Source: Torpedo marmorata
Taxonomy: Eukaryota
Direction: 5' to 3'
Assembly (NCBI GenBank): GCA_977017645.1
Contig: OZ360221.1
Coordinates: 92,318,001 to 92,382,000 of the forward strand
Length of the DNA stretch: 64,000 nucleotides
Shown here: positions 12,331 through 48,859 of the stretch, piece by piece
Numbering within the stretch: position 1 is the stretch's first letter
Layout: every line of letters starts with the position of its first letter
Notes under the pieces: model-generated
The model's input: the letters and a program-made list of their open reading frames with translations, nothing else
Told to the model about the DNA's origin: nothing
Database searches by the model: none
Translations under genes and position numbers: made by a program

Positions 12331-12379
12331 AAAGTATGAGCAAAAGGCAGGCAGCTGCCTGAATAAAATGGCTGGGGGG

Positions 12380-12590
12380 AGGGGCAGGGAGAGGAGGGGC
12401 AGGGAGAGGAGGGGCAGGGAGAGGAGGGGCAGGGAGAGGAGGGGCAGGGAGAGGAGGGGCAGGGAGAGGAAGGGCAGGGAGAGGAAGGGCAGGGAGAGGA
12501 GGGCAGGGAGAGGAGGGGCAGGGAGAGGAGGGGCAGGGAGAGGAGGGGCAGGGAGAGGAGGGGCAGGGAGAGGAAGGGCAGGGAGAGGAG
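12380..12590 (+). repeat. Purine-rich 15-bp minisatellite (GGGCAGGGAGAGGAG) x about 14
   Basis: Direct tandem array inside the Penelope 3' region. Confidence 0.95.
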
Positions 12591-14532
12591 CACAAGCCCA
12601 CAGGCAGGAGGTCATAGGTGGATATGGGCAGGAGGGCACAAGAGCAAAAATCTCAAAAGTGATAGAGGTAGGGTACGGCTCTCTGAATGGAGAGGGAAGG
12701 GGGTGAATAGTTGAAGGGAAGGAGACACAAAGAAGGGGAAGAAAACCAGAGAAGTCAATGTTAATGCCATCCGGTTGGAGAGTGCCCAGACGGAATATTA
12801 GGTGTTGCTCCTCCAATTTACGGGTGGCCTCGGTTTGGCAGTGCATGAGGCCATGGACAGACATGTCGGCGTGGGAGTGGAGCATGGAATTGAAATGGTT
12901 GGCCACTGGGAAATCCCCATCATTGCTGTGGACAGAGCGTAGATGATCAACGACTCGATCTCCGAGTCTGCGTCCAGTCTCTGTAGAGAAAGCCCCAATG
13001 GAAGCGCCAGATGGAATAGATAACCCCCACAGATTCACAAGTGAAGTATTGCTTCACTTGAAAGGACTGTTTAGGGGCCCCGAATGGTGGTGAGAGAGGA
13101 GGTGTGGGCGCAGGTGTAGTACTTCCTGCGGTCATAGGGGTAAGTTCCAAGGGAGAGATTAGTGGGAAGTGATAAGTGGATGAGGGAGTCATAGAGGGAG
13201 CGATGCCTACGGAAGCAGAGAGGGGAGGAGAGGGGAAGATGCATCTGGCGGTGGGATCATGTTGTAGGTAACAGAAATTGTGGAGGATAATCAGTTGGAT
13301 GTGGAGGCTGGTGGGGTGGTGAGGACAAGAGGAATGCTGTCCTTGTTGCGTCTAGGGGCAGAGGGGGCCAGGGCAGATGTGCGGGAAATGGAGGAGCAGC
13401 GAGTAAGGGCTGAGTTGATGGTGGTGCAGGGAAAGCCACATTTTTTTGAAGAAGGAGGACATCACAGATGATCTGGAATGGAAGATCTCATCCTGGGAGC
13501 AGATGCAGTGCAGGAGCCCTTGGAGATAGCAGTGAAATGGCATATAAGAACATCGCGGGTCAAAATTAAAGATCAACCTGAATCAACGTCCGTGCCTTCA
13601 GCAATATCCAGCGTACTCAAAGACAACGCATGGAGAGAACTAATGACTCAATTGGGTCATCCAAGATAGAGCGGCATTCCCATCCTCCTTTTTTGTTGGG
13701 TAAAAAGCAACAATGAAATTGACAAAAACTCTCCTCCATATAATAGCCAAAGCTTTCTCTATTTTTCGAGAAATGTGAAGAGGGCAAATTAGGCTGTATC
13801 TTGATGCCAGTGTTGAAAGGAGCAATATCTCTATTACAAATAACATCATCAGCATGGCTGGAGAAAGCCTCCACAGGTCTCTTGTCTGGTGAAGCATCCG
13901 TGGCCAGTTATTGGGTGAGAGAAAGTGAGTCTGAATGCCAAGTGATGAACTAGGTTCACCTGGAGGTCACGTTTTGGATCATAATTGGGATCCCTACAGA
14001 GCAAAGCAAATCTCATAATTTTGACTGCTAACAAAGAGAGCAGGGGTAAAAATGTATGAAAAGTGGTTGGTTTAGAAATTGATGATGGTTCTCTATGAGC
14101 GTTGAGAGGAAGGAATTTGCTGGAGGATACCTGCCGCAGCTGTCCGAACCACAGTTTGTGAAGCTGCGGAACCAATGGGCAAAGTTTCCTGTACAAGGCC
14201 CACTGTCCAGAGTCACCATTCATGAGCCCTGCCCTCGCCACCCTCCCACCCTCCCCAATCAGACCTGGAACAGATGTGAATGGCCACTTTCAGTAATCCT
14301 TTGTACCTGGGTGGTGTCCACCATGGTTGGATAGGTGAGTCCTGAATCCCCAATGACGACTTCATTCCCCTCCCACCCCCTCAGCCACCTCCTGCCTAGA
14401 ACTTTCTGGTAGGCTGTGGTAGGATGCAAACCTATGTGAAAATCTGTGAACCGTTTTGGAGTTATTAAACATCTGATATTCAGAGACATTGAAAAACTAG
14501 TAGAAGTTTTGTAAATAATTGAGAAAGAAATA

Positions 14533-15344
14533 CTGTATATTTCGGCATATAAGTTGATCGGCGTATAAGTCGATCCCACTTTTTCAGCCTCAATTTAATG
14601 GTTTTATGGTATATCCGGCGTATAAGTCGACCCCCAATTTTCAGGCTGTCCGGGCCTCCCAGAAACAACACAAAATTTGTTACAACACCACAATTGCCAA
14701 GTAACAAAGCTGTAAATTAAGCAAGTACCGGTAAGTAAAAAAAACAGTAAAAAAAAACCTTTGCTTCTGGCCGGGAAGATGCAGGTGCGGCGACGTCTTT
14801 CTCCTGAGAAGGTGCGGCGACGTCTTTCTCCCGAGCAGGAGCGGGGAGCTTGTTCTCCCGAGCAGGAGCGGGGAGCTCGTTCTCCCGAGCAGGAGCGGGG
14901 AGCTCGTTCTCCCGAGCAGGAGCGGGGAGCTCGTTCTCCCGAGCAGGTGCGGGGAGCTCGTTCTCCCGAGCAGGAGCGGGGACGTCTTTCTCCTGAGCAG
15001 GAGCGGGGAGCTCAGGCCCCTGAGCAGGAGCGGCGACCTTGTTCTCCCGGGTAGGAGCGGGGACCTCAGGTTCTACAATTGTAGAATGTCTGGGTGGGTT
15101 ATGGCGGCGCCCGGCGGTGGCGAGATGTCGGGGAGCGGCGGCGCCGGCAGTGGGGAGGTGCTTCCAGCGTCGACCTATATGCCAAATCAGTTTTTCATGG
15201 GTCGACTTATACGCCGAATCGGCGTGGATTGGTTTTTGATCTGATTTTAAGGTCTCAAAAGTATATCCGGTGTATAAGTCGACCCCCGTTTTTTGAGAGA
15301 TTTTTGAGGGTTTCAAGACTCGACTTATACGCCGAAATATACGG
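14533..15344. mobile_element. Tc2/pogo-like MITE, copy 1, with an internal 27-bp minisatellite
   Basis: TIR C(C/T)GTATATTTCGGC(G/A)TATAAGT, TA flanks at 14531-14532 and 15345-15346; internal GTATAAGTCGACCCC repeats; 27-bp array at about 14796-15065. Confidence 0.88.
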
Positions 15345-15519: not shown

Positions 15520-18500
15520 TCTCAGATTTCAGATTCAGATTTCAGATTTATTGTCAAAGTACATACATGACATCACATACAACCCTGAGATTCCTTTTTC
15601 CTGCGGGCGCGGCAGAATTACCACTTATTGGTAGTGCAAAAAATAAACTGTACACAGTGTAAACATGTAAATAAATAAAAGAACTGTAAACAGATAACGA
15701 ATGTAAACAAACTGACTGTGCAATACAGAGAGAACAAAAGAAAATCAATAAAGTGCACAAGTAAGAGTCCTTAATTGAGACTCTGATTGAGTTTGNNNNN
15801 NNNNNNNNNNNNNNNNNNNNNNNNNNNNNNNNNNNNNNNNNNNNNNNNNNNNNNNNNNNNNNNNNNNNNNNNNNNNNNNNNNNNNNNNNNNNNNNNNNNN
15901 NNNNNNNNNNNNNNNNNNNNNNNNNNNNAGAGCAGTCTGATGGTGGAGGGGTAGCAGCTGTTCCTCAACCTGGTGGTGCGAGTCTTGTGGCACCTATACC
16001 TCTCTCCTGATGGCAGCAGTGAGAACAGAGCGTGTGCAGGGTGGTGTGGGTCTTTGATGATTGCTGCTGCCCTCTGACGGCAGTGTTCCCTGTAGATGTA
16101 CTCAACAGTGGGGAGGGTTTAGCCTGTGATGTCCTGGGCTGTGTCCACTACCTTTTGGAGGGCTTTACGCTCAGGGGTATTGGTGTTTCCATACCAGACC
16201 GTGATGCACCCGGTCAGCACACTTTCCACCACACCTCTGTAGAAATTTGCCAGGGTTTCTGGTGTCATACCAAACCTCCGCAAACTCCTGAGGAAGTAGA
16301 GGCGCTGACGTGCTTTCTTCACGATGCCATTAGTGTGTTGGGTCCAGGAAAGATCCTCCGAGATAGTGACTCCCAAGAACCTAAATTTGCTCACCCTCTC
16401 CACCTCTGATCCCCCAATGATCACAGGATTGTATACCTCTGGCTTTCCTTTCCTGAAGTCAACAATCAGCTCCTTAGTTTTGGTGACATTGAGTGCAAGG
16501 TTGTTGTTGGTGCACCATTCAGCCAAGTCTTCAATCTCCATCCTGTATGCTGACTCATCCCCATCCTTTATACAACCCACTACCGTGGTATCGTTGGCAA
16601 ATTTGTGGATGGTGTTATTGTCGTTCCGAGCTACACAGTCGTAGGTGTAAAGTGAGTAGAGCAGGGGGCTAAGAACACAGACCTGTGGTGCTCCGGTACT
16701 GATGGAGATTGTGGAGGAGAATTTCTTACCAATCTTCACTGATTGTGGTCTGGAGGTGAGGAAATCCATGATACAATTACACAGTGGGGTGTTAACTCCC
16801 AGGTCTTGGAGTTTGCTGATCAGTTTTGAGGGGATGATGGTGTTTAATGCCGAACTATTCATCTTTGCTGTCCAGGTGTTCCAGGGCTTTGTGTAGAGCC
16901 ATGAGATGGCATCCGCCGTAGACCTGTTTCTACGATAGGCAAACTGGAATGTATCCGTGTCACTGCTCAGACAGGAGCTGATATGCTTCATCACCAGCAT
17001 TTCAAAACACTTGATCACTGTTGATGTCAGTGCTACTGATCGATAGTCGTTAAGGCAGGTTACTACACTCTTCTTGGGCACCGGTATGATTGATGCCTGT
17101 TTGAAACAGGTGGGTCCGATGCCCTGCTGGAGTGAGATATTGAAGATACCCATGAATACCTTGGTAAGTTGGTCAGCACAGATCTTTAATACTTGGCCAG
17201 GTACTCCATCCGAGCCGGATGCTTTCCTCGGATTCACTCTCCTGAAGGCAGCACGCACGTCATCCTCAGATAGGGACAGGATGGGATCGTCAAGGGACGT
17301 GGGGGTACGGAGGGCTCTTCGCTGTTACTGTTGTCAAATCGGGCATAGAAGGTGTTGAGTTCCTCTGGGAGAAAAGCTTTGACGTCAGCTACTTTACTGG
17401 ATTTGGTTTTGTAACAGGTTATGGCATTGAGACCCTGCCACAGCTGTCGGGTGTCCCTCGTTGTTTCCATTTTCATCCGGAATCTCCACTTCGCCGAGGA
17501 GATAACTTTCCGCAGGTCATACCTGCTCCTGCTGTACTGATCTGGATCTCCGGACTTAATGCCTGCGATCTGGCTCTCAGCAGGTTCCGGATTTCATTGT
17601 TCATCCAGGGCTTCTGGTTGGGGAAAACCCTGAATGAGTTGGTGGGGACACACTCATCCACAGCTGTTTTGATAAAGTGTGACAGCCTCAGTGTACTCGT
17701 TCAGATTCTCAGCAGAGTCCTTGAACACTGCCCAATCCGCTGACTCGAGGAAGTCCTGTAACCGTTCTTCAGCCTCCTGCGACCACTTTCTAGCTGTCCT
17801 GACCTCTGGAGCCTCTCTTTTTAGGCTCTGTCTGTATGAAGGCAGAAGGAACACAGCCAGGTGATCAGACTTGCCAAAGTGCGGTCTCGGGAAAGAAGGG
17901 TAGGCATTTCTTATCTTGGTGTAGCAGTGATCAAGTGTGCTGGGACCTCTGGTACAGCAGGTTACATGCTGGTGGTAGTTAGGCAGGGTTTTCTTGACAC
18001 AGGCCTGGTTAAAGTCGCCGACTAAGATTTGTAGTGCATCGGGCTGGGCCGTCTCTTGTTTACTGATCACATCATGTAGCTCCGCAAGTGCCTGCTTGTA
18101 ATCGGCATCGGGAGGGATGTAAACTCCGGTGAGAATCACAGATGAGAACTCACAGGGTAGATAGAAGGGTCTGCATTTAATCGAGGTTTGCTCTAAGGCA
18201 GTAGAGCAGGAGGTCGACATAACTCCAATGTCCGTACACCACGCAGTATTAACGGAAAAGCACACACCGCCTCCTCTCCCTTTTCCAGAATCCGAGTTCT
18301 GATCCAGTCTATGGATGGTGAAACCGTCTGGTCGGATAGCGGTGTCTGGTGTGTTCTCTGTTAGCCAGGTCTCGGTGCAGCAAACAACTGAGATTTGTCT
18401 TACTTGTCTGTGGTAGTAGCCTTGCCCTCAGGTCGTCGATTTTATTCTCCAGTGACTGGACATTTGCCAGTAATATGGACGGTAGGAGAGGTCTCAGACC

Positions 18501-23192: not shown

Positions 23193-23425
23193 TGATGCAC
23201 CATCAATAACTCCAAAGACTAGAAGTTAGACAGGAACTGATAGGCTTTTATTCACATTGGAATGGATGTACACTCGTGGTGGTCATCTGAGCTGGAATGG
23301 GGAGGGAGCTGTGGCACAATAGCCTTTATTCAGGGGTCTGTGGGAGGAGCCACAGGTACAGCCAGTAAGGGGCATGTCCAGATGACCACAAACATATATA
23401 CAGGTATTTACAGTGGTTTACCACA
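23193..23425 (-). mobile_element. Solo LTR related to the Gypsy A LTRs
   Basis: TGATG...TGGTTTACCACA, about 233 bp, collinear with 37223-37456; degenerate 5-bp TSD (ATCCT / TTCCA versus Rex1 ATCCA). Confidence 0.85.
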
Positions 23426-25204: not shown

Positions 25205-27210
25205 GTGACAGTCAACATGGCTTTCTCCAGGGTAGGTCATGTCTTACAAATTTTATTGCGTTTTTTTGAAGAGGTGACAAATGTGGTTGATGAAGGTAGG
25301 AGAGTGGATGTTGTCTAAAAGGACTTTAGTAAAGCATTTGACAATCCACACATCTAGAATTTCATCCCAGTCATTTACCTGTATCACAAACACGAGGGGC
25401 CCCAGCACTGATCCCCGTGGAATACCTGCTGTCACGGAACATTAATGGTGGGCTGATCCAGAAGTAATGTGCGTGGGATCCACAGCGAATTGATGGTTTG
25501 GATACAAAATTGGCTGGCCCTTAAAAGATTGAGGGGAGCAGTGGAAAGGTTTTAATCTCCCTGAGGTGTTAAGGTTCTGTGTCCACAGGTGTTCCATGGG
25601 GATACAGTTAATAACAGGACCATTAACAGGATTGAGGTACAAAAGGATCTGGGAGTCCAAGTCTATAGGTTCCTGAACATGGCCATGCAAGTAGATAGGG
25701 TGGTAAAGAAAATGTGTGGTATGCTTACCTCATTAGTCAGTTATGTTGCAGTTATATAAAATTTCAGTTAGACAGCACTTGAGTGCAATTGTGGAGGTTG
25801 AGGCTTTGGAAAGGGTAGCAAAGAGATACTGTATACCAGGGTGCTGTGATGCTGCCTAAATTTGAGGGATGAGCTATAAGGAGAGATTGGACAAACTTGG
25901 ATTGTTTTCTCTGGAGTGTCAGAGGCTGAGGGGAGACCTGATAAAAGTTTATAAAATGATGAGAGGTGTAGATAGGGTAGACAGTCGGAATCTTTTCCCT
26001 GGGTAAGAATGTCCAATAGTAGAGGACATGTTCAAGGTGAGAGGGGGAAAGTTTAAAGGAGAAGTGCAGGGTAAGTTTTTTTTACACACAGTGAACAATA
26101 AATGCCTGGAATGGGCTGCCATGGGTAGTGGTGCAAGCAGATACGACAGTAACGTTTAAGAGGCTTTTAGATAGACACATGAATATGTAGGGCATGGAGT
26201 GATATGGATCATGTGCAGGCAGAGGAGATTTACCGTATATTTCGGCGTATAAGTCGACCGGCAGATAAGTCGACCCCCCTTTTTCAGCCTCATTTTAATG
26301 GTTTTATGGTATATCCGGCGTATAAGTTGACCCCCAAAAATCGCGATGCCTGAGATGTTGCGCATTGACCGGCATATAAGTCGACCCCCAATTTTCAGGC
26401 TGTCTGGGCCTCCCAGCAACAACCCAAAATTTGTTACAACATCCCAATCGCCAAGTAACAAAGCTGTAAATTAAGCAAGTACCGGTAAGTAAAAAAAACA
26501 GTAAAAAAAACCTTTGCTTCTGGCCGGGAAGATGCAGGTGTGGCGACGTCTTTCTCCTGAGCAGGTGCGGCGACGTCTTTCTCCCGAGCAGGAGCGGGGA
26601 CGTCTTTCTCCCAAGCAGGAGCGGGGAGCTCATTCTCCCGAGCAGGAGCGGGGACGTCTTTCTCCCGAGTAGGAGCAGGGACGTCTTTCTCCCGGGTAGG
26701 AGCAGGGACGTCTTTCTCCCAGGTAGGAGCGGGGAGCTCGTTCTCCCGAGCAGGAGCGGGGAGCTCGTTCTCCCAAGCAGGAGCGGGGAGCTCGTTCTCC
26801 CGGGTAGGAGCGGGGACCTCGGGCTCTACAATTGTAGAATGTCTGGGTGGTTTATGGCGGCGCCCGGCGGTGGGGAGGTGTCGTGGAGAGGCGGCGCCGG
26901 CGGTGGGGAGGCGCTTCCAGGGTCGACCTATACGCCGAATCGTGTTTTCAGGGGTCGACTTATACGCCGAATCGTGTTTTCAGGGGTCGACTTATACGCC
27001 GAATCGGCGTGAACTCGATTTTGAGCTGATTTTAAGGTCTCAAAAGTATATCTGGCGTATAAGTCGACCCCCGTTTTTTGAGACATTTTTGAGGGTTTCA
27101 AGGGTCGACTTATACGCCGAAATATACGGTAGTTTAATTTGGCATTGTGTTCGGCGCCATCATTATGGGCGGAAGAACCCGTTCTTGTATTGAACTCTTC
27201 TATGTTCTAT
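25205..27210 (+). mobile_element. Decayed CR1 LINE with an internal inverted piece and a MITE insertion
   Basis: QHGF..GRSCLTN, DFSKAFD and CR1 3' motifs; TTCTATGTTCTATG tail at about 27198-27211. Confidence 0.75.
26233..27129. mobile_element. Tc2/pogo-like MITE, copy 2
   Basis: TIR CCGTATATTTCGGCGTATAAGTCGAC with TA flanks at 26231-26232 and 27130-27131; collinear with 14533-15344; 27-bp array at about 26550-26815. Confidence 0.9.
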
Positions 27211-36449: not shown

Positions 36450-37222
36450 ATGCTGACTTATCGCCCCTGTTTATAACAACCCACTACCATGGTATCGTCA
36501 ACAGGTTTGTAGATGCTGTAGTTGTACCGATCCACACAGTCATAGTGTATAGCGAGTGGAGTCGGGGCTAAGAACGCAGCCCTATGTTGCGCCGGTACTG
36601 ATAGAGATTGTGGAGGAGATGTTCTTACCAATCCTCACTGATTGTGGTCTGGAGGTGAGGTAATCCAGGATCCATTACACAGTGAGATATTGAGGCCCAG
36701 ATGTTGTAGTTTGCTGATCAGTTTTGAGGGGATGATGGTGTTGATTGCCGAACTGTAGTCGATGAAGAGCATCCTGATGTAGGTGTCTTTGCTGTCCAGG
36801 TGTTCCAGGCCTTTGTGTAGAGCCAGTGAGGTGGCAACTGCCGTAGACCTGTTGCTGCGGTAAATTGGAATGGATCCATATCGCCGCTCAGACAAGAGCT
36901 GATATGCTTCAACAACAGCCTCTCAAAACACTACATCACTGTGGATGTGAATGCCACTAGTCATTTAGGCAGGATATCACACTCTTCTTGGGCACCGGTA
37001 CGATTGAGGCCTGTTTGAAACAGGTGGGTACCATGCCCTGTTGGAGTGAGATGTTGAAGACATCCGTGATTACATTGGCAAGTTGGTTAGCATAGATTTT
37101 CAGTACTCGGCCGGGTACTCCGTCCGGACCGGATGTTTTCCTTGGATTCACTCTCCCAAAGGCAGCCCTCACATTAACCTCAGATACTAACAGTAGAGGA
37201 TCATATGGGGACATGAGGGGGT

Positions 37223-37456
37223 TGATGAGCCCATCAATTACTTCAAAAGACTAGAAGTTGTACTTGAACTGAAAGGCTTTTATTAGCAAAAGAAAGGAGT
37301 CACATCCATGCTGGTAATCTGTCCCGGACTGGGGGAGGAGTGGTGGCACAATCGCCTTTATTCAGGGGGTCTGTGGGAGGAGCCACCGGGACAGTCAGCA
37401 GAGGGCATGTCCAGACATATCACCCAGCCACAAACTATACAAAGTGGTTTACCACA
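37223..37456 (-). repeat. Gypsy A 3' LTR
   Basis: TG...CA direct repeat of 48157-48390; purine tract GGGGTGAA adjacent on the minus strand. Confidence 0.95.
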
Positions 37457-37516
37457 TTCACCCCACGGGGTGAAGGGTGTAACAATATTTACAAAAGAAA
37501 TTACAAATTAGTATAT

Positions 37517-39710
37517 TTACAGGTCGAGTCGATCAGGCAGTCGAGTCCGCCGTTGTGATCGGCGCAGTACTTGTGGTGATGGGGCAGGTGGCGGTGCTGC
37601 CTCCTGCCTGATTGGAGGTACCAGCACGTCTGGCGTAAGCAGAACCTCGTGTGTGTACGCCGCAGCTGGTACGGGGGTCTCGTTTTGTGTCAGTTTTGAA
37701 TTGGGTGGTGTCTCCTTTGTGTCTCTAGTGGTCGGTGCGGGGGTAACAGTAACCATGGATTGTTCGGGGGTGGGCACCAGTGCTCCTGCGGGCGCCACGT
37801 CCCGGATGGAGACGGTGTCTTCCCGCCCATCAGGAAAACCACGTAGGCGTACTGGGGGTTCGCACGTCGTAGTTGAACTCTCTCAACCATCGGGGCGTAT
37901 TTATTGCTCCTGACATGTTTCCGGAGCAGCACTGGCCCTGAGGACGTCAGCCAGGCTGGTAGGGTAGTCCCGGTGGTCGACTTCCTGGGGAAGGAAAAGA
38001 GTCTCTCATGAGGGGTGGCATTGGTGGATGCGCATAGCAGGGAGCGGATGGAGTGGAGTGCCTCGGGAAGGACATCCTGCCAGCGGGAGACTGGTAATCC
38101 CTTAGACCTGAGGGCTAAGAGTGTGGCCTTCCAGACCGTGGCGTTCTCCCTCTCCACTTGTCCATTCCCCCGGGGGTTATAGCTCGTGGTCCTGCTAGTC
38201 GCGATACCCCTGGCCAGCAGGTATTGGCGCAGCTCGTCACTCATAGCAGGGGTATCCAAACAATGTGAAGAGTGTACGGAGGGATTTTATGACCGAGGTG
38301 GTCGTGGTATCGGGGCAGGGAATGACGAAAGTGAACCGCGAGTACTCGTCAATGACGTTAAGAAAGTACACATTACGGTCGGTGGAGGGGAGGGGGCACT
38401 TAAAGTCGGCACTCAGTCGCTGAAATGGGCGGGTTGTTTTGATCAATTGTGCCTTGTCAGGTCGGTAGAAGAGCAGTTTGCATTCCGCGCAGACTTTGCA
38501 GTTCCCGGTCATCGTCCTGACCTCTTCAAGGGAGTACGGCAGGTTTCGAGCTTTCACAAAGTGGAAAAGCCGGATGGTAAAGGTCGCAGTGGAGGGCATA
38601 TAACCGGTCAATCTGTGCGCTGGTGCACTTCCCCCGGGATAGGGCATCGGAGGGCTCGTTGAGCTTCCCAGGCTGGTACATGATATCATTGTTGTAGGTT
38701 TTATTCTCCACCTCAGGATTTTATCGTTTTTGATTTTATCTCGCTGCTGATTGCTGAACATAAATGCGACTGAGCACTGGTCAGTCAGCAGGGTAAACCT
38801 TTTACCGGCAAGATAGTGCCTCCAGTGCCTTATAGCTTCCACGATGGCCTGGGCCTCTTTCTCCACCACTGAGTGCCGAATTTCTGGGCCTTGAAGGGTA
38901 TGGGAGAAGAACGCCACCGGTCTTACCGCCTGGTTGAGGGTAGCAGCCAGTGCAAGGTCGGACGCGTCGCTTTCTACTTGGAAGGGAGTGGACTCGTCCA
39001 CCACGTGCATTGCTGCTTTGGCAATGTCCCCTTTGATGAGGCTGAAGGCCACGCGTGCCTCAGCTGAGAGGGGGAAAATGGTGGACTTGACTAGGGGGTG
39101 CGGGCCTTGTCCGCATAATTAGGGACCCATTGTGCATAATATGAGAAGAATCCCAAGCACCTTTTGAGAGCTCTGAAGATGTGGGGAAGCAGTAGTTCTA
39201 GCAGGGGGCGCATGCGGTCGGGGTCGGGGCCGATGACTACGTTCTCCACAACGCACCCCAGGATAGCGAGTCGGGTGGTTCCGAACATGCACTTATCCTT
39301 GTTAAAAGTGAGATTAAATGTTTTGGCCACCTGGATGAACTTCCGGAGATTGTTATCATGGTCCTGCCGGTCGTGACCACAGATAGTAATATTGTCCAGG
39401 TATGGGAACGTGGCCTTTAATTGGCACTGGTCCACCATCCTGTCCATCTCCCTCTGGAAGATGGATACCCCATTTGTGACCCCGAAGGGGACGCACAGGA
39501 AGTGATAGAGCCTGCCATCCGATCGAAGGCGGTGTAAGGGCTGTCCTCCCGGTGGATGGGGAGCTGATGATAGGCAGATTTGAGATCTATGGTGGAGTAT
39601 AGCTTGTACTGAGCTATCAGATTCATCATATCTGCAATGCGTGTTAGAGGGTACGCGTCGAGCTATGTGAACCTATTGACGGTCTGACTATAATCTACCA
39701 CCATCCTATT
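37517..39710 (-). pseudogene. Gypsy A pol (RT, RNase H, integrase), frameshifted
   Basis: STIDLKSAYHQ, YLDN, VESDAS, EKEAQA, TDQ, GNGQVEREN, LRRSQR..PDRL. Confidence 0.88.
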
Positions 39711-41281
39711 TTTCTCCCTGTTCTTTTTTAAAAAAAAATATTTTATTTAAAATTTTAAAATCACAAAATACATAAAGTAAAATATAAAATTATGAAATTA
39801 TTTGTGATACATTTTCACCCCCCTCCCTCCCTCCCTCCCCTCCCCAACCCTCCCAACCCCATTAATCTAATAAAAATATAAAATAAAAATAGAAAAAGAA
39901 AAAGAAAGAAAGAAAAGGATAGAGTTAGGGGAATGCCAATCTATAAACTACTTCTATTATGGAGGTCAAATATGCCAGTAGACCCAATACCCAGAGATCT
40001 TCAAATTCTTAAGCCAACGGCTCTCATATATGGGCTCCAAATTTTTAAGAAAAAATGATATTTGTTACGTAAATTATAAGTAATTTTTTCAAGTGGTATA
40101 CACGAACGAAGTTCTGCATGCCATCTTTCAAATCCTAAATCTAAATCAGATTTCCAAGTAATAGCAATGCATTTCTTTGAAACAGCTAAAGCAATTCGCA
40201 AAAATTCTATTTGATACATATTTAATTTCATCTTAATACTAAATTTTCTAATATCTCCAAACAAAAATATCATAGGATCCATTGGAAACGTAATTTTAAA
40301 TACTTTATCTAAAACATTTTTAACTTTCAACCAAAAATCATAAACTTTTGGACAAAACCATGTAGAATGTACAAAAGATCCTTCTTCTTTATTACATCTA
40401 AAACATAAACCTGATAATGTCGGATTACATTTCTTTAATTTTTTTAGGTGTTAAATATAATTGATGAAAAAAATTGTATTGTACTAATCTATATCTAACA
40501 TTAATAATCTTCGTCATACTTAATTTAGATAATTCTTTCCAATGATTTTCATCTATTCTTACATTCAAATCTAATTCCCATTTTAATCTTGATTTATGCT
40601 ATCCTACTTTAGGTATTTTCCTCTGAAACAATTTATACATTTGAGAAATAAATTTATTAACATCTCCATTAGTAACTAATAATTCTAATTCATTTTGCCT
40701 TGGTAAAATCAAAGCATAACCTAATTTCTCAATCAAAAAAGCTCTAATTTGATAATAAGCAAAAAGTGTATTATCTAATATATTAAATTTATCTTTCATT
40801 CTTTGAAAAGTAATAAATTTCCCAGCTTCAAAACAGTAATTAATCTTCTTAATTCCTTTTTGTTGTGTATTTCGGGTGTAAGCTTACAATAACACACCGA
40901 GACGACAGTCTTCATTCATCATTTATTACTAAACTAAAATGGCATTCAGAGTTACCCCTTATATAGTACGTATGACATCATTACGTCATAAGTTATACGT
41001 TACATATACAACACTCTTCCCCCCCACGAAATATAGATGGTTATTATGATTATATATTCCCCGATTACTGGTAAACTATAGTAACTACTGGAATATAGCG
41101 GGGAAACTACAATTACAAACAAAACATGCAAGTAAAACTAGAACTACTAACTGTTAGTATCATACTGATCATCACTAAAGTGAAAAATCATTTAAGGTAC
41201 ATAGTCTCTCAAATGTTCTGGTGGACGTCGTTGACGATGTGATCTTCTTAGGGGAGGATCCCCTACAGCTGTCGAAACCAA

Positions 41282-45459: not shown

Positions 45460-45472
45460 ATCCTCGTCGCCA
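45460..45472 (-). promoter_or_regulatory. Gypsy B primer-binding site TGGCGACGAGGAT, complementary to the vertebrate tRNA-Ser(GCU) 3' end
   Basis: Lies 3 nt inside the 5' LTR; tRNA-Ser(GCU) ends ...AUCCUCGUCGCCA (from memory). Confidence 0.75.
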
Positions 45473-46666
45473 ATCTGTTGTGTATTTCGGGTGTAAGCTT
45501 ACAATAACACACCGACGACAGTCTTCATTCATCACTTTTTGAAACCAAATTTTAAATAATTGATTATTAATAGTAAATGGAATAAGTCCATTTTGATATA
45601 AAGGCATCCTTGAAGAAATCAATCCTTTTCCTCCTATTTCCTTATCCGTCTTATTCCATATTTCTAACAAATGTTGAAAAATAGGTGAATTTTTCTTTCT
45701 TGTTGATATTAATTTAGAATCCCATTTATAAATAATTTTTTCTTTGGAATCTTCTCCTATATTATTTAATTCTATTTTAATCCAAGCAGAAGATTTAGTT
45801 GAATCAAAAAATTCATTAATAAATTTTAGTTGAGCTGCTTTATAATAATTTTGGAAATTAGGAAGTTGTAAACCACCCATTTCATAATTCCAAGTTAATT
45901 TTTCCATACCTACTCTTGCTAACTTTCCTTTCCATAAAAATTTTCTAATAATTAAATTTAAATCTTTAAAAAATTTTTGAGGAATTCCATATGGAATTGA
46001 TTGAAAAAGATATTGAATTCTTGGAAAGACATTCATTTTAATACAGTTTACTCTTCCCATTAAAGTTATAGGTAAATCTTTCCAATTTTCTAAATCTTTC
46101 TTTATTTTCACAAATAATGGTAAATAATTTAATTTATATAAGTTATTCAATTTTATATCGACCCTTATTCCCAAATATTTAATTCCTTCCTTTGCCCATT
46201 TAAATTGTGTGATTTCTTTACATCTACTATAATCCCCTTGTGATAATGCCATAATTTCACTTTTATCAGAGTTAATCTTATATCCAGATATTTCCCCATA
46301 TTCTCTCAATAACAGAGACAATTGTACTAAGGATGTAGTAGATTTTGTCATATATATCAATACATCATCTGCAAACAAACTAATTTTATGTTCTTCCATT
46401 CCAACTTTAATACCAACTATTTTCGGATCTTTTCTAACTAATTCTGCCAAGGGTTCTATCGCCAAAATAAATAATGCTGGTGACAAAGGACATCCTTGTC
46501 TAGTAGATCGAGTCAAAGGAAATTTTGAAGAAGTTTGTCCATTTGTAACTACTTTAGCTGATGGTTCTTTATATATAGTTTTAATCCAATTAATAAATGT
46601 ATTTCCAAAACCAAATTTCTCCAATACCTTAAATAAAAAATTCCACTCTAATTTCTCCCTGTTCTT

Positions 46667-48133
46667 GATGACAACCATCTGGGCCCTCCAGGGACTTGTG
46701 CTCGCCTCAATGATCCCTTCCCTAAGCAACCGCTGCACCTCCGACTTAATGAAGGCCCTGTCCCCTGCGCTGTATCTCCTGCTTTTGGTTGCCACAGGTT
46801 TACAGTCAGATTGGCGAACAGCGTTGGGGGAGGGATCTTGAGGGTGGATTGGCCGCAAGTAGTGTTTGTGATGCGGCTGCGTGTGTGGTGTGGCGGGATA
46901 CGTCTACCATGTTTGAGGAATTGATGGTTACCGACACTGACGACCCTTTGGCTTACTGGCTGTGTCATGAGTCTGCAACGCTGCGCCGTGTCAGGGTGGA
47001 TGAAGCTCTCCGTGCTGCCCGTGTCGAACAGGCAGCTTGTCCTGCCTCCCTCCACCAGAATGTCCATCATAGACCTCGTGAGTTGGTGGTGCACTTTGGT
47101 CGAGTGTAACGGGTGCCAAAGGTGAGTCGCTGTCTTGATCTGACGCGATGGAGTGCCTGTTGTTCTGGGTTGGCGGCACCCGTGGGTCGTGTCGGTGTGA
47201 TGACGGCGAACAAAATGGCCGCTCCCATGACTCGCACGTGTTGGCCGTGGGTATGTAAGATTGTGGCGACTGAAGTGACGACAAACAAGATGGCCACCCC
47301 CATGTCTCGCACATGGTGGCAGCGGACGGGCAAGATGGCGATGGTAACAATGGCGACCCCCATGCCTCGCACGCGGTGCTGCTCGATCCCGCTCGCGGTT
47401 TTGACTTACAGACCTTGGCGAAATGGCATTTCTTCCCGCAGCTGGCACAGGTCGCATCTCTGGCCGGGCAACGTTTCCAGGGGTGATTTTCGAGTCCGCA
47501 GAAGTAGCACTTCTCGGACTCGCGGCTGACTGCAGCTGTGGTTGATTCGCTGGTGTGGTGCGGGGTCTGCGGTATCCACGGAGCCGGCGGGATATCACGT
47601 GCCTGGATAGCATCGGAGTTCTGCAACGCGGCTTCCAGCGTGTCTTCCAGCTCTATCGCCAAGCGTAAGGTGAGGTCGGCTTGCTGCAGCAGGCGCTGGT
47701 GCACATACACCGACCAGGTCCCAGTGATGAAAGCGTCTCTTGCCAGGAGCTCCGCGTGTTCTCCGGGCGTCAGTGCCTGGTAATCACAGGCCCGCACGAG
47801 TGTCTGTAGGGCCCGGACGAACTCCGCGCTCAACTCACCGGGCCGCTGCTGCCGCGTCGTTAACCGGTGTCGCGCGTATACCGTATTAACTGGCCGTATA
47901 TATTGTCTTTTAAGAGCGTTCATAGCGTCTTCGTAGGTCTGCAGGTCTCGGATCATCGAGTAGACCCGTGGGCTGACCCTAGAGAGGAGGACTTTGCGTT
48001 TTGAAGCGTCTTCGTGCACCTTGATTTCCTCCAGGAATGACTCAAAGCAGGCTAGCCAGAGTTCGAAAGCGTTGCCGGCCTCTGGTGTTTGCGGATCGAG
48101 GTCCAGCTTGTCGGGTCTCAAGATATTTTCCAG
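46667..48133 (-). pseudogene. Gypsy A gag, protease and RT start
   Basis: RPDKLDLDP N-terminus, CYFCGLENH..C and CASCGKKCH..C knuckles, LFDTGS, SPWRAQ; the probable start codon has decayed to CTG at 48133. Confidence 0.85.
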
Positions 48134-48156
48134 GCTTAAAATTTTGCTTATAAAAT

Positions 48157-48390
48157 TGATGAGCCCATCAATAACTTCAAAAGACTAGAAGTTGTACTTG
48201 AACTAAAAGGCTTTTATTAGCAAAAGAATGGAGTCACATCCATGCTGGTAATCTGTCCTGGACTGGGGGAGGAGTGGTGGCACAATCGCCTTTATTCAGG
48301 GGGTTTGTGGGAAGAGCCACCGGGACAGTCAGCAGAGGGCATGTCCAGATATATCACCCAACCACAACCTATACAAGATGGTTTACCACA
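48157..48390 (-). repeat. Gypsy A 5' LTR
   Basis: Direct repeat of 37223-37456. Confidence 0.95.
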
Positions 48391-48859
48391 GGGGTGCAAC
48401 AGTTTTTGCTTGTCTAGTGGTCAAATTGGACTTATAAGTCATTGAGTTCATCTGGGAGTGAAGCTTTGATATCTCCTACTGCACTGGATTTGGTTTTGCT
48501 GCAGGTTATATCATTTAGGCCCTTCCGCAGCTGTCGAGTATCCTTCGTTGTTTCGATTCTTGTCCGGAATCTTTGCTTTGCCCAGGAACTGGCTTTTCAT
48601 AGGTAGTACTTGCTCCTGGTGTAGTGCTCTGGATCTCCGGTCTTAACTGCCAGTGATCTGGCTCTCAGCAGGTTCTGGATTTCATTGTTCATTCAGGGCT
48701 TCTTGTTAGGGAAAACCCTGAACAATTTGGTTGGGACCCACTCATCCACAGCTGTTTTAATAAAGTCTGTAACGGCACTGGTGTAATCATTCAGATCTTC
48801 AGCTGAGTTCTTGAACACAGCCCACTCCATTGACTCAAGGCAATACCCTCTGATCCAGG

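Follow-up and report, generated by a model that had tools for sequence, protein, structure and literature searches.

A Torpedo marmorata Ty3/gypsy retrotransposon with a primer-binding site complementary to its own LTR: sequence evidence for a predicted self-primer

The retrotransposon on the minus strand of the window (the whole 64,000-nucleotide stretch of Torpedo marmorata DNA analysed here) raises the question of how reverse transcription is started in an element whose 5' LTR is not followed by a tRNA-type primer-binding site. With its TG..CA LTRs, a target-site duplication and the order gag-PR-RT-RH-IN, the element belongs to an abundant family of Ty3/gypsy retrotransposons, of which it is a decayed copy. 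The features referred to below are as follows, all on the minus strand and with LTR position 1 at 48390.

48157-48390, minus: 5' LTR, TGTGG..CATCA, 234 nt
37223-37456, minus: 3' LTR, identical to the 5' LTR at 223 of 234 positions
48391-48395, minus: target-site duplication ACCCC, upstream copy (downstream copy at 37218-37222)
48289-48298, minus: TATA-like box TGAATAAAGG (LTR 93-102), read from the sequence and putative in its role
48260-48266, minus: Inr-like CCAGTCC with the predicted transcription start at A 48264 (LTR 127), placed by the primer-copy ends of aberrant insertions at LTR 125-129
48212-48264, minus: predicted self-primer of ~53 nt (LTR 127-179), deduced from aberrant insertions
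48212-48225, minus: paired 3' end of the predicted primer, TTTTGCTAATAAAA, including the AATAAA hexamer (from covariation and copy counts)
48211-48212, minus: predicted cut AATAAAA/GCC (LTR 179/180), placed by the junction in all extension products and by minus-strand ends
48163-48211, minus: predicted R-U5 helix, beginning at the cut, 48211-48202 pairing with 48172-48163
48193-48188 and 48178-48173, minus: AACTTC and GAAGTT, enclosed by the predicted R-U5 helix
48155-48172, minus: alternative terminal hairpin ATTGATG-GGCT-CATCAAT, competing with the R-U5 helix
48142-48155, minus: primer-binding site, 14 nt, one base past the LTR end and 13/14 complementary to the element's own LTR
46991-48133, minus: gag frame with two CCHC knuckles, start codon mutated
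46652-47088, minus: protease remnant
37796-39713, minus: RT, RNase H and integrase in frame-broken pieces, separated from the protease by nested insertions
37457-37474, minus: polypurine-tract remnant in the inverted repeat TTCACCCC..GGGGTGAA, shorter than in relatives
23193-23425, minus: solo LTR of sister family B (segment CAATGTGAATAAAA)
45460-45472, minus: TGG-type primer site of a nested, unrelated Gypsy B, serving as an internal control

The distance from the LTR end to the start of the gag frame is 24 nt, in agreement with the ~25 nt given in the original prediction, and a single spacer A (48156) separates the LTR from the 14-mer 48155-48142. This 14-mer is complementary to the LTR segment 48225-48212 at 13 of 14 positions, a match equalled by 7 of 100,000 shuffled LTRs and confirming the reverse complement to the AATAAA-bearing segment that had been noticed in the single copy. 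Sister copies of family A (n = 28, leaving out L027) pair with their own LTR at 14/14 positions in 22 cases, at 13/14 in five and at 12/14 in one. A TGG within 8 nt of the LTR end is present in 0/28 of them, bearing out the absence of a tRNA primer site after the 5' LTR; intact copies with a normal TGG site, from which the window element might have lost it, are likewise missing among these 28. Across the 6.2 Gb of the genome the junction pattern, in which the first seven bases of the site were fixed as TTTTATT (as they were in both extension-product patterns used below), gave 9,871 matches compared with 29 for the reversed pattern.

Sister family B, to which the solo LTR at 23193 belongs, has a different LTR segment (CAATGTGAATAAAA) and is represented by 29 other loci, of which nine are 5' junctions with this type of site. 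Seven of these nine carry TTTTATTCACATTG, the exact complement of their own, different LTR segment and the post-LTR sequence that the original prediction had deduced for this family from the solo LTR. When each site in the first 30 junctions is compared with its own LTR, the seven positions that vary contain 193 Watson-Crick pairs out of 210, and none of 100,000 label shuffles exceeded 169/210. When 32 distinct copies are aligned, two-sided (compensatory) changes occur in six of the seven variable pairs and 96-97% of cells are paired, counts in which copies of the same subfamily are not independent; the proposed covariation of the two 14-mers across subfamilies is found. Judged by the sequences, the site of this family is not a damaged tRNA site. 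The lack of TGG, the covariation of the 14-mers and the outcome for the solo-LTR family give good support to the self-priming branch of the original prediction.

Two groups of loci depart from this arrangement. L186 and L210 hold a different repeat ending ATCA-ATTTTATT, which is junction-like and has neither gag behind it nor an upstream complement. In a subfamily comprising L184, L190 and 19 more loci the leader reads GAAT after the 14-mer, and their own LTR has no matching ATTC; this leader may be a relic of an old primer run-through.

The complementarity extends beyond the Torpedo genome. A search with 21 aligned long relatives, which share 43-63% identity with the first row, led to 521 related metagenome stretches, 80 of which were kept. 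Among the 37 metagenome loci with a gag start an anchored complement, beaten by at most 1/200 shuffles, is found in 27, with three further loci weak and seven without a candidate complement, and 30 metagenome junctions gave no flagged TGG primer site. Twenty distant families, hand-picked and with CA/ATTT required, were represented by a single locus each, and 11-19 pairs with at most one mismatch are present in 17. In each of these 17 well-paired families AAA closes the paired segment, 20-65 nt upstream of the LTR end.

It is likely that the element primes reverse transcription with a ~53-nt piece from the 5' end of its own RNA, and when all variants of self-priming are taken together the idea becomes highly probable, both estimates resting on comparisons of DNA. 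Transcription would start at the Inr-like AGTC, at A 48264 (LTR 127). Nucleotides 40-53 of the RNA (LTR 166-179) would pair with the primer site, the next bases of the RNA pairing with U5, and the RNA would be cut between AAUAAAA and GCC (LTR 179/180) to yield a 53-nt primer, the cutting enzyme probably being the element's RNase H by analogy with Tf1. The new 3' end would prime minus-strand DNA, which would stop at the cut and be transferred via the short remaining R. Plus-strand copying is predicted normally to halt after the 14 paired bases, regenerating the primer site from the LTR, and a candidate stop is a weak hairpin, GGATG/CATTC, located just 5' of the paired part. Such copying of the 14 paired bases would by itself enforce the covariation of site and LTR.

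The fold of the leader RNA is only partly that drawn in the original prediction. The window RNA folds no better than shuffled versions (z -1.37 and -0.80), with z values of -0.4 to -4.7 for other copies. The two inner inverted repeats described there are both present, but the multi-branch fold built from them is not favoured: the minimum-energy folds of the window copy and of five other genome copies omit ATTGATG/CATCAAT and contain instead a competing helix, GCCTTTCAGT/ATTGATGGGC, which begins directly after AAUAAAA, with GCC.. pairing to ..GGC in U5. Two-sided changes among the 32 distinct copies number zero for AACTTC/GAAGTT and one for the terminal hairpin, which does not appear in the minimum-energy folds and was discarded as the principal fold. 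The retention of a TGATG/CATCA hairpin in the solo LTR at 23193-23425 was correctly noted, the LTR there ending TGATG-GTG-CATCA. Within the genome 91% of cells of the R-U5 helix pair and its changes are one-sided only. In the 20 distant families its summed length is 68, compared with a null mean of 44.8 and a null maximum of 58 in 2,000 draws; it reaches at least 4 bp in 11/20 families, and variants changing in step are seen as GCCTA/TAGGC, ACCTA/TAGGT and ACCAT/ATGGT. The 5-bp hairpin GGATG/CATTC just upstream of the paired part is 89% paired with weak covariation.

If the primer is derived from the LTR, a mis-copied product is expected to consist of the LTR end, the site and then further inverted LTR. 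The corresponding extension pattern has 148 matches in the genome compared with nine for controls, and examination of 90 loci gave 64 true extension products, five unrelated loci and 21 from the subfamily with the native GAAT leader, the last two groups being dropped. All 64 are joined at AATAAAA-T-TGA, several with clean 5-bp duplications. The primer-side arms of this first set run to the U3 start in 38 loci, end at LTR 158-160 in six and end internally in 20. After L249 and L250 were merged and L255 (with a 6-nt deletion) was dropped, 7 of 18 internal ends fall at LTR 125-131 (p 2e-5; 0.003 corrected; 8/19 with L255 kept), with eight others at LTR 119-152 and three at 24-118. A second pattern (75 matches, control 0) supplied 33 further, held-out loci, the arms of which reach the U3 start or beyond in 26. 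Three of the seven held-out internal ends lie at LTR 126-128 (p 0.003; 2/6 and p 0.03 without one intra-LTR jump), the others being at 120, 114, 111 and 51. For ends between LTR 24 and 129, 9/17 are within 125-129, and those upstream of 127 include 111 and 114 plus the ambiguous 119 and 120. Switch points near LTR 127 have microhomologies of 1-12 nt. In L220 the piece is bounded on both sides (LTR 119/127-179, T, then 234-181 reversed) and lies within coding sequence. Run-through products number ~100 compared with ~10,000 normal junctions.

The end cluster coincides with CCAGTCC, which we take to be Inr-like and, with TGAATAAAGG ~30 nt upstream, to form a TATA-Inr-like layout; the TATA-like box ~30 nt upstream of the predicted start is retained in the divergent L148 family. 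On the other side of the junction, 19 of the 97 loci have a minus-strand arm that stops or folds back within LTR 175-183, and a single locus has one ending near 127 (125-129). The 19 comprise six ends at LTR 175-181 and 13 fold-backs at 176-183, the latter sharing 3-5 nt of microhomology that could make this a hot spot alone. In these aberrant insertions the LTR segment with AATAAAA at its end is linked directly to minus-strand U5, which suggests that the primer has been preserved together with minus-strand DNA and favours a long self-primer that pairs only through its final 14 nt. Where repeats are abundant, a genome's few mis-copied insertions can in this way map a start, a cut and a strong-stop end from DNA, independently of RNA.

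Other rearranged LTRs were encountered in the same searches. In L194, L205, L201, L222, L227, L243 and L256 an inverted ~26-nt copy of the element's own U5 end is inserted exactly at the predicted cut; LTRs of this kind occur in several subfamilies, L194 and L205 being solo-LTR-like with clean 5-bp duplications. L203 and L207 are fold-back insertions from different subfamilies that share the same end at LTR 97 in the TATA-like box, and their end is not CA.

Priming by the 3' copy of R is an unlikely alternative, in which the 3' end of the RNA would pair with the site and be cut after AAUAAAA with the whole RNA attached. The same 14-mer is present in both copies of R, the AAA ending of the paired segment in 17/17 well-paired relatives suits such a primer, and the arms of 4/33 held-out loci (L351, L356, L358 and L381) pass through U3 into the polypurine tract. 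Arms reaching the U3 start or the polypurine tract are explained as readily by a fold-back via the 14-nt repeat as by a 3'-R primer, which weighs against the ~53-nt primer; mis-transfer of the plus strand to the 3' R yields the same four products. A 3'-R primer also predicts a minus strand extending to the transcript start, whereas the 19 of 97 stops or fold-backs are at LTR 175-183 with a single one near 127, and the cluster of primer-arm ends at LTR 125-131 requires an RNA 5' end.

Quite improbable, too, is a Tf1-like short primer of 18 nt with transcription starting at the second Inr-like motif CCATTC (LTR 162), an early idea of the analysis that was demoted to a rival; on this reading the ends near 127 would be due to pausing at a C run or to a minor upstream start. 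Most subfamilies have an almost invariant CCATTC immediately 5' of the paired segment, the complement starts at an Inr-like A in two distant relatives (L084 and L103), and six arms end at LTR 158-160. These six arms, although close to CCATTC, are explained by the AATGG common to the LTR and the gag start. A start at 127 has a TATA-like box ~30 nt before it and a start at 162 has none at that distance, and the L148 and L184 families have no CCATTC, yet keep the upstream CAGT motif. The concentration of 9/17 ends from LTR 24-129 at 125-129 favours the ~53-nt self-primer over this shorter one.

The alternative branch of the original prediction, in which the duplex serves to hide the 5'-LTR AAUAAA from premature polyadenylation while another RNA primes, is very unlikely. 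In this genome's subfamilies the duplex does include the hexamer, and the 5' LTR is the sole place where the fold is possible. Among the 17 well-paired distant families A[AT]TAAA is inside the paired segment in 10 and absent from it in seven, so the duplex is independent of the poly(A) signal, and in L062 AATAAA lies 26 nt downstream, outside the duplex, results that contradict occlusion as its main purpose. The duplex moreover starts exactly one base past the LTR end, the place required of a primer, no other primer site is visible, and the junction fossils would be left unexplained. Masking of AAUAAA at the 5' LTR may be a side effect in families having the hexamer inside the duplex. Retrocopies with a poly(A) tail, sought to map the poly(A) site, gave 11 matches at two places.

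Host tRNAs were compared using a partial set of 38 tRNA genes of eight amino-acid types. For each of the 14 site variants the anticodon arm of tRNA-Ile(AAT) matches best, over 9 nt in two variants (the commonest among them), 8 nt in one and 5-6 nt in 11, so that the search for a host-tRNA match, put forward as a challenge to self-priming, had a mixed outcome: a 9-nt match exists but falls to 5-6 nt for most variants. Lineage-wide pairing with one tRNA 5' half, as in Bianca, is not found among the 14 variants. Least probable of all is that a tRNA-Ile(AAU) of the host, cleaved in its anticodon arm, supplies its 5' half as primer, in the manner reported in PMC6317226 for half-tRNA-Ile in Bianca Copia. 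TGCTAATAA of the host tRNA-Ile(AAT) matches the commonest family-A site over 9 nt, beginning 3 nt from the LTR end, but the match is down to 5-6 nt for 11/14 variants, distant relatives differ in sequence, the sites follow their own LTR rather than a tRNA, and every extension fossil has its junction at the complete AATAAAA end, with a spacer of one base. The TGCTAATAA stretch of the tRNA-Ile(AAT) anticodon arm (L382-L387) is also present at the end of the predicted family-A primer.

A double CCHC gag marks the Mag lineage of Ty3/gypsy elements, and Mag elements use tRNA primers. The knuckles in the window frame are two CX2CX4HX4C motifs, also present in relatives, and neither the chromodomain PF00385 (E<=0.05) nor the Tf2-type SH3 domain PF24626 is found in any of 21 intact relatives, upholding the earlier description of a Mag-type gag with no chromodomain. 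A quick tree built from 44 RT-RNase H rows unites the 20 rows of the clade in one branch with support 100. Its nearest group comprises unnamed Mag-like tRNA-primed rows (SH-aLRT 89), with no named Mag or Cigr-1 row among them, and the branch of the clade is long, its RT identity with the Mag-like rows being only 24-34%. The clade is separate from the plant chromovirus-like P0081, the single row of that kind and itself on a long branch, in a tree that has no Tf1/sushi rows because searches of the genome for the chromodomain and the Tf2 SH3 yielded none. These comparisons place the clade, weakly, next to the Mag-like elements. Chromodomain matches genome-wide number 15, none beside an integrase, and the 12 Tf2-SH3 loci examined are all Gmr1-type, with integrase before RT where both are present; chromoviruses look rare or absent in the genome. 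The nearest named proteins are from rays at ~80% identity, and named members of the clade come from rays, sharks, the tunicate Styela, the sea anemone Actinostola and the nematode Trichuris, with no relatives found among viral contigs. The RT motifs of the clade have no match in the searched supplements, including that of PMC6238403, in which the Cigr-1 clade is listed under Mag.

Like the Mag-lineage Ty3/gypsy elements and Cigr-1, the clade has a double CCHC gag, short LTRs and one long frame, but lacks the TGG primer site carried by the Mag-like element that is nested in the window. The gag of Saci-2 is described as CCCH in the relevant passage of PMC2582038, in contrast to the double CCHC of the window element.

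The closest functional parallel is Tf1. In Tf1/Tf2 of Schizosaccharomyces pombe, in Tj1 and in Tf1/sushi elements the post-LTR primer site is likewise complementary to the element's own R, and in Tf1 a second helix joins the post-primer bases to U5, as predicted here. In the account of PMC7175516 the first 11 nt of Tf1 pair and RNase H cuts between nucleotides 11 and 12; the Tf1 leader is presented in PMC10085805 as a three-duplex "pretzel" of which the duplex beside the primer is required; and the primer is stated in PMC11042837 to be copied into the cDNA end. Counterparts of the central duplex and the R-U5 duplex of the pretzel appear to be supported by the sequences examined here. Tf1, Tf2 and Tj1 carry a chromodomain according to PMC10085805, whereas the clade has none (21/21 intact relatives) and has a double CCHC gag. 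The predicted primer of ~53 nt, with only its last 14 nt paired, differs from the fully paired 11-mer of Tf1, and the predicted cut follows an AAUAAA-like hexamer. The clade appears to work like Tf1, yet is not assigned to Tf1/sushi.

In the portions of the cited literature drawn on here, yeast Tf1 is the one element in which self-primed reverse transcription has been shown, and self-priming is taken as characteristic of the Tf1/sushi chromoviruses. In plants, self-priming has been predicted for TAR (Houba, Osr-1) Copia and Tcn1 Gypsy elements, which have a complement of at least 10 nt located 0-5 nt past the 5' LTR (PMC6317226, in part), and because of TAR Copia the prediction already extends outside chromoviruses; these elements differ from the clade in belonging to another superfamily or to a chromovirus clade and in having plant hosts. 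No paper on self-priming in this kind of element was found by full-text searches with a coverage short of most subscription journals and of Repbase Reports. Self-priming itself is a known mechanism, and what is new here is the primer map with its predicted start, cut and strong-stop end.

The chances are evenly balanced that a broader set of propositions holds jointly, namely that a pan-animal, non-chromovirus Gypsy clade has independently evolved a self-priming unlike that of Tf1; that its primer is capped, ~53 nt long, paired by the last 14 nt and cut directly after the poly(A) hexamer; that a stop signal limits plus-strand copying; and that the duplex makes the primer and can also silence the 5' poly(A) signal. 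If true, priming without tRNA would have arisen a second time, in an animal clade of wide distribution, and would be a solution that recurs; self-primed elements would evade tRNA fragments as a means of control and go unnoticed when annotation relies on tRNA matches. A primer that is long and only partly paired also raises the question of how the plus strand is stopped without a modified tRNA base.

Several further features of the window and genome were recorded. The inverted repeat at the polypurine tract (TTCACCCC..GGGGTGAA) folds at about -15 kcal/mol in the sister copies L032 and L043, before the 3' LTR; its middle is gone in the window copy, and the fold in distant relatives is weaker and different. 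Nested Gypsy B has a near-open pol frame and the primer site TGGCGACGAGGAT (45460-45472, minus), presumably of the tRNA-Ser type. Gmr1-type elements (L272-L318), with integrase before RT and a primer site TGGGGGCTCG.. that we assume to be of the tRNA-Pro type, have 41,875 first-look candidates. The window also includes a run of N at 15796-15928 and tandem arrays of 27-nt and 15-nt units, located at 14684-15145, 26437-26898 and 12337-12634.
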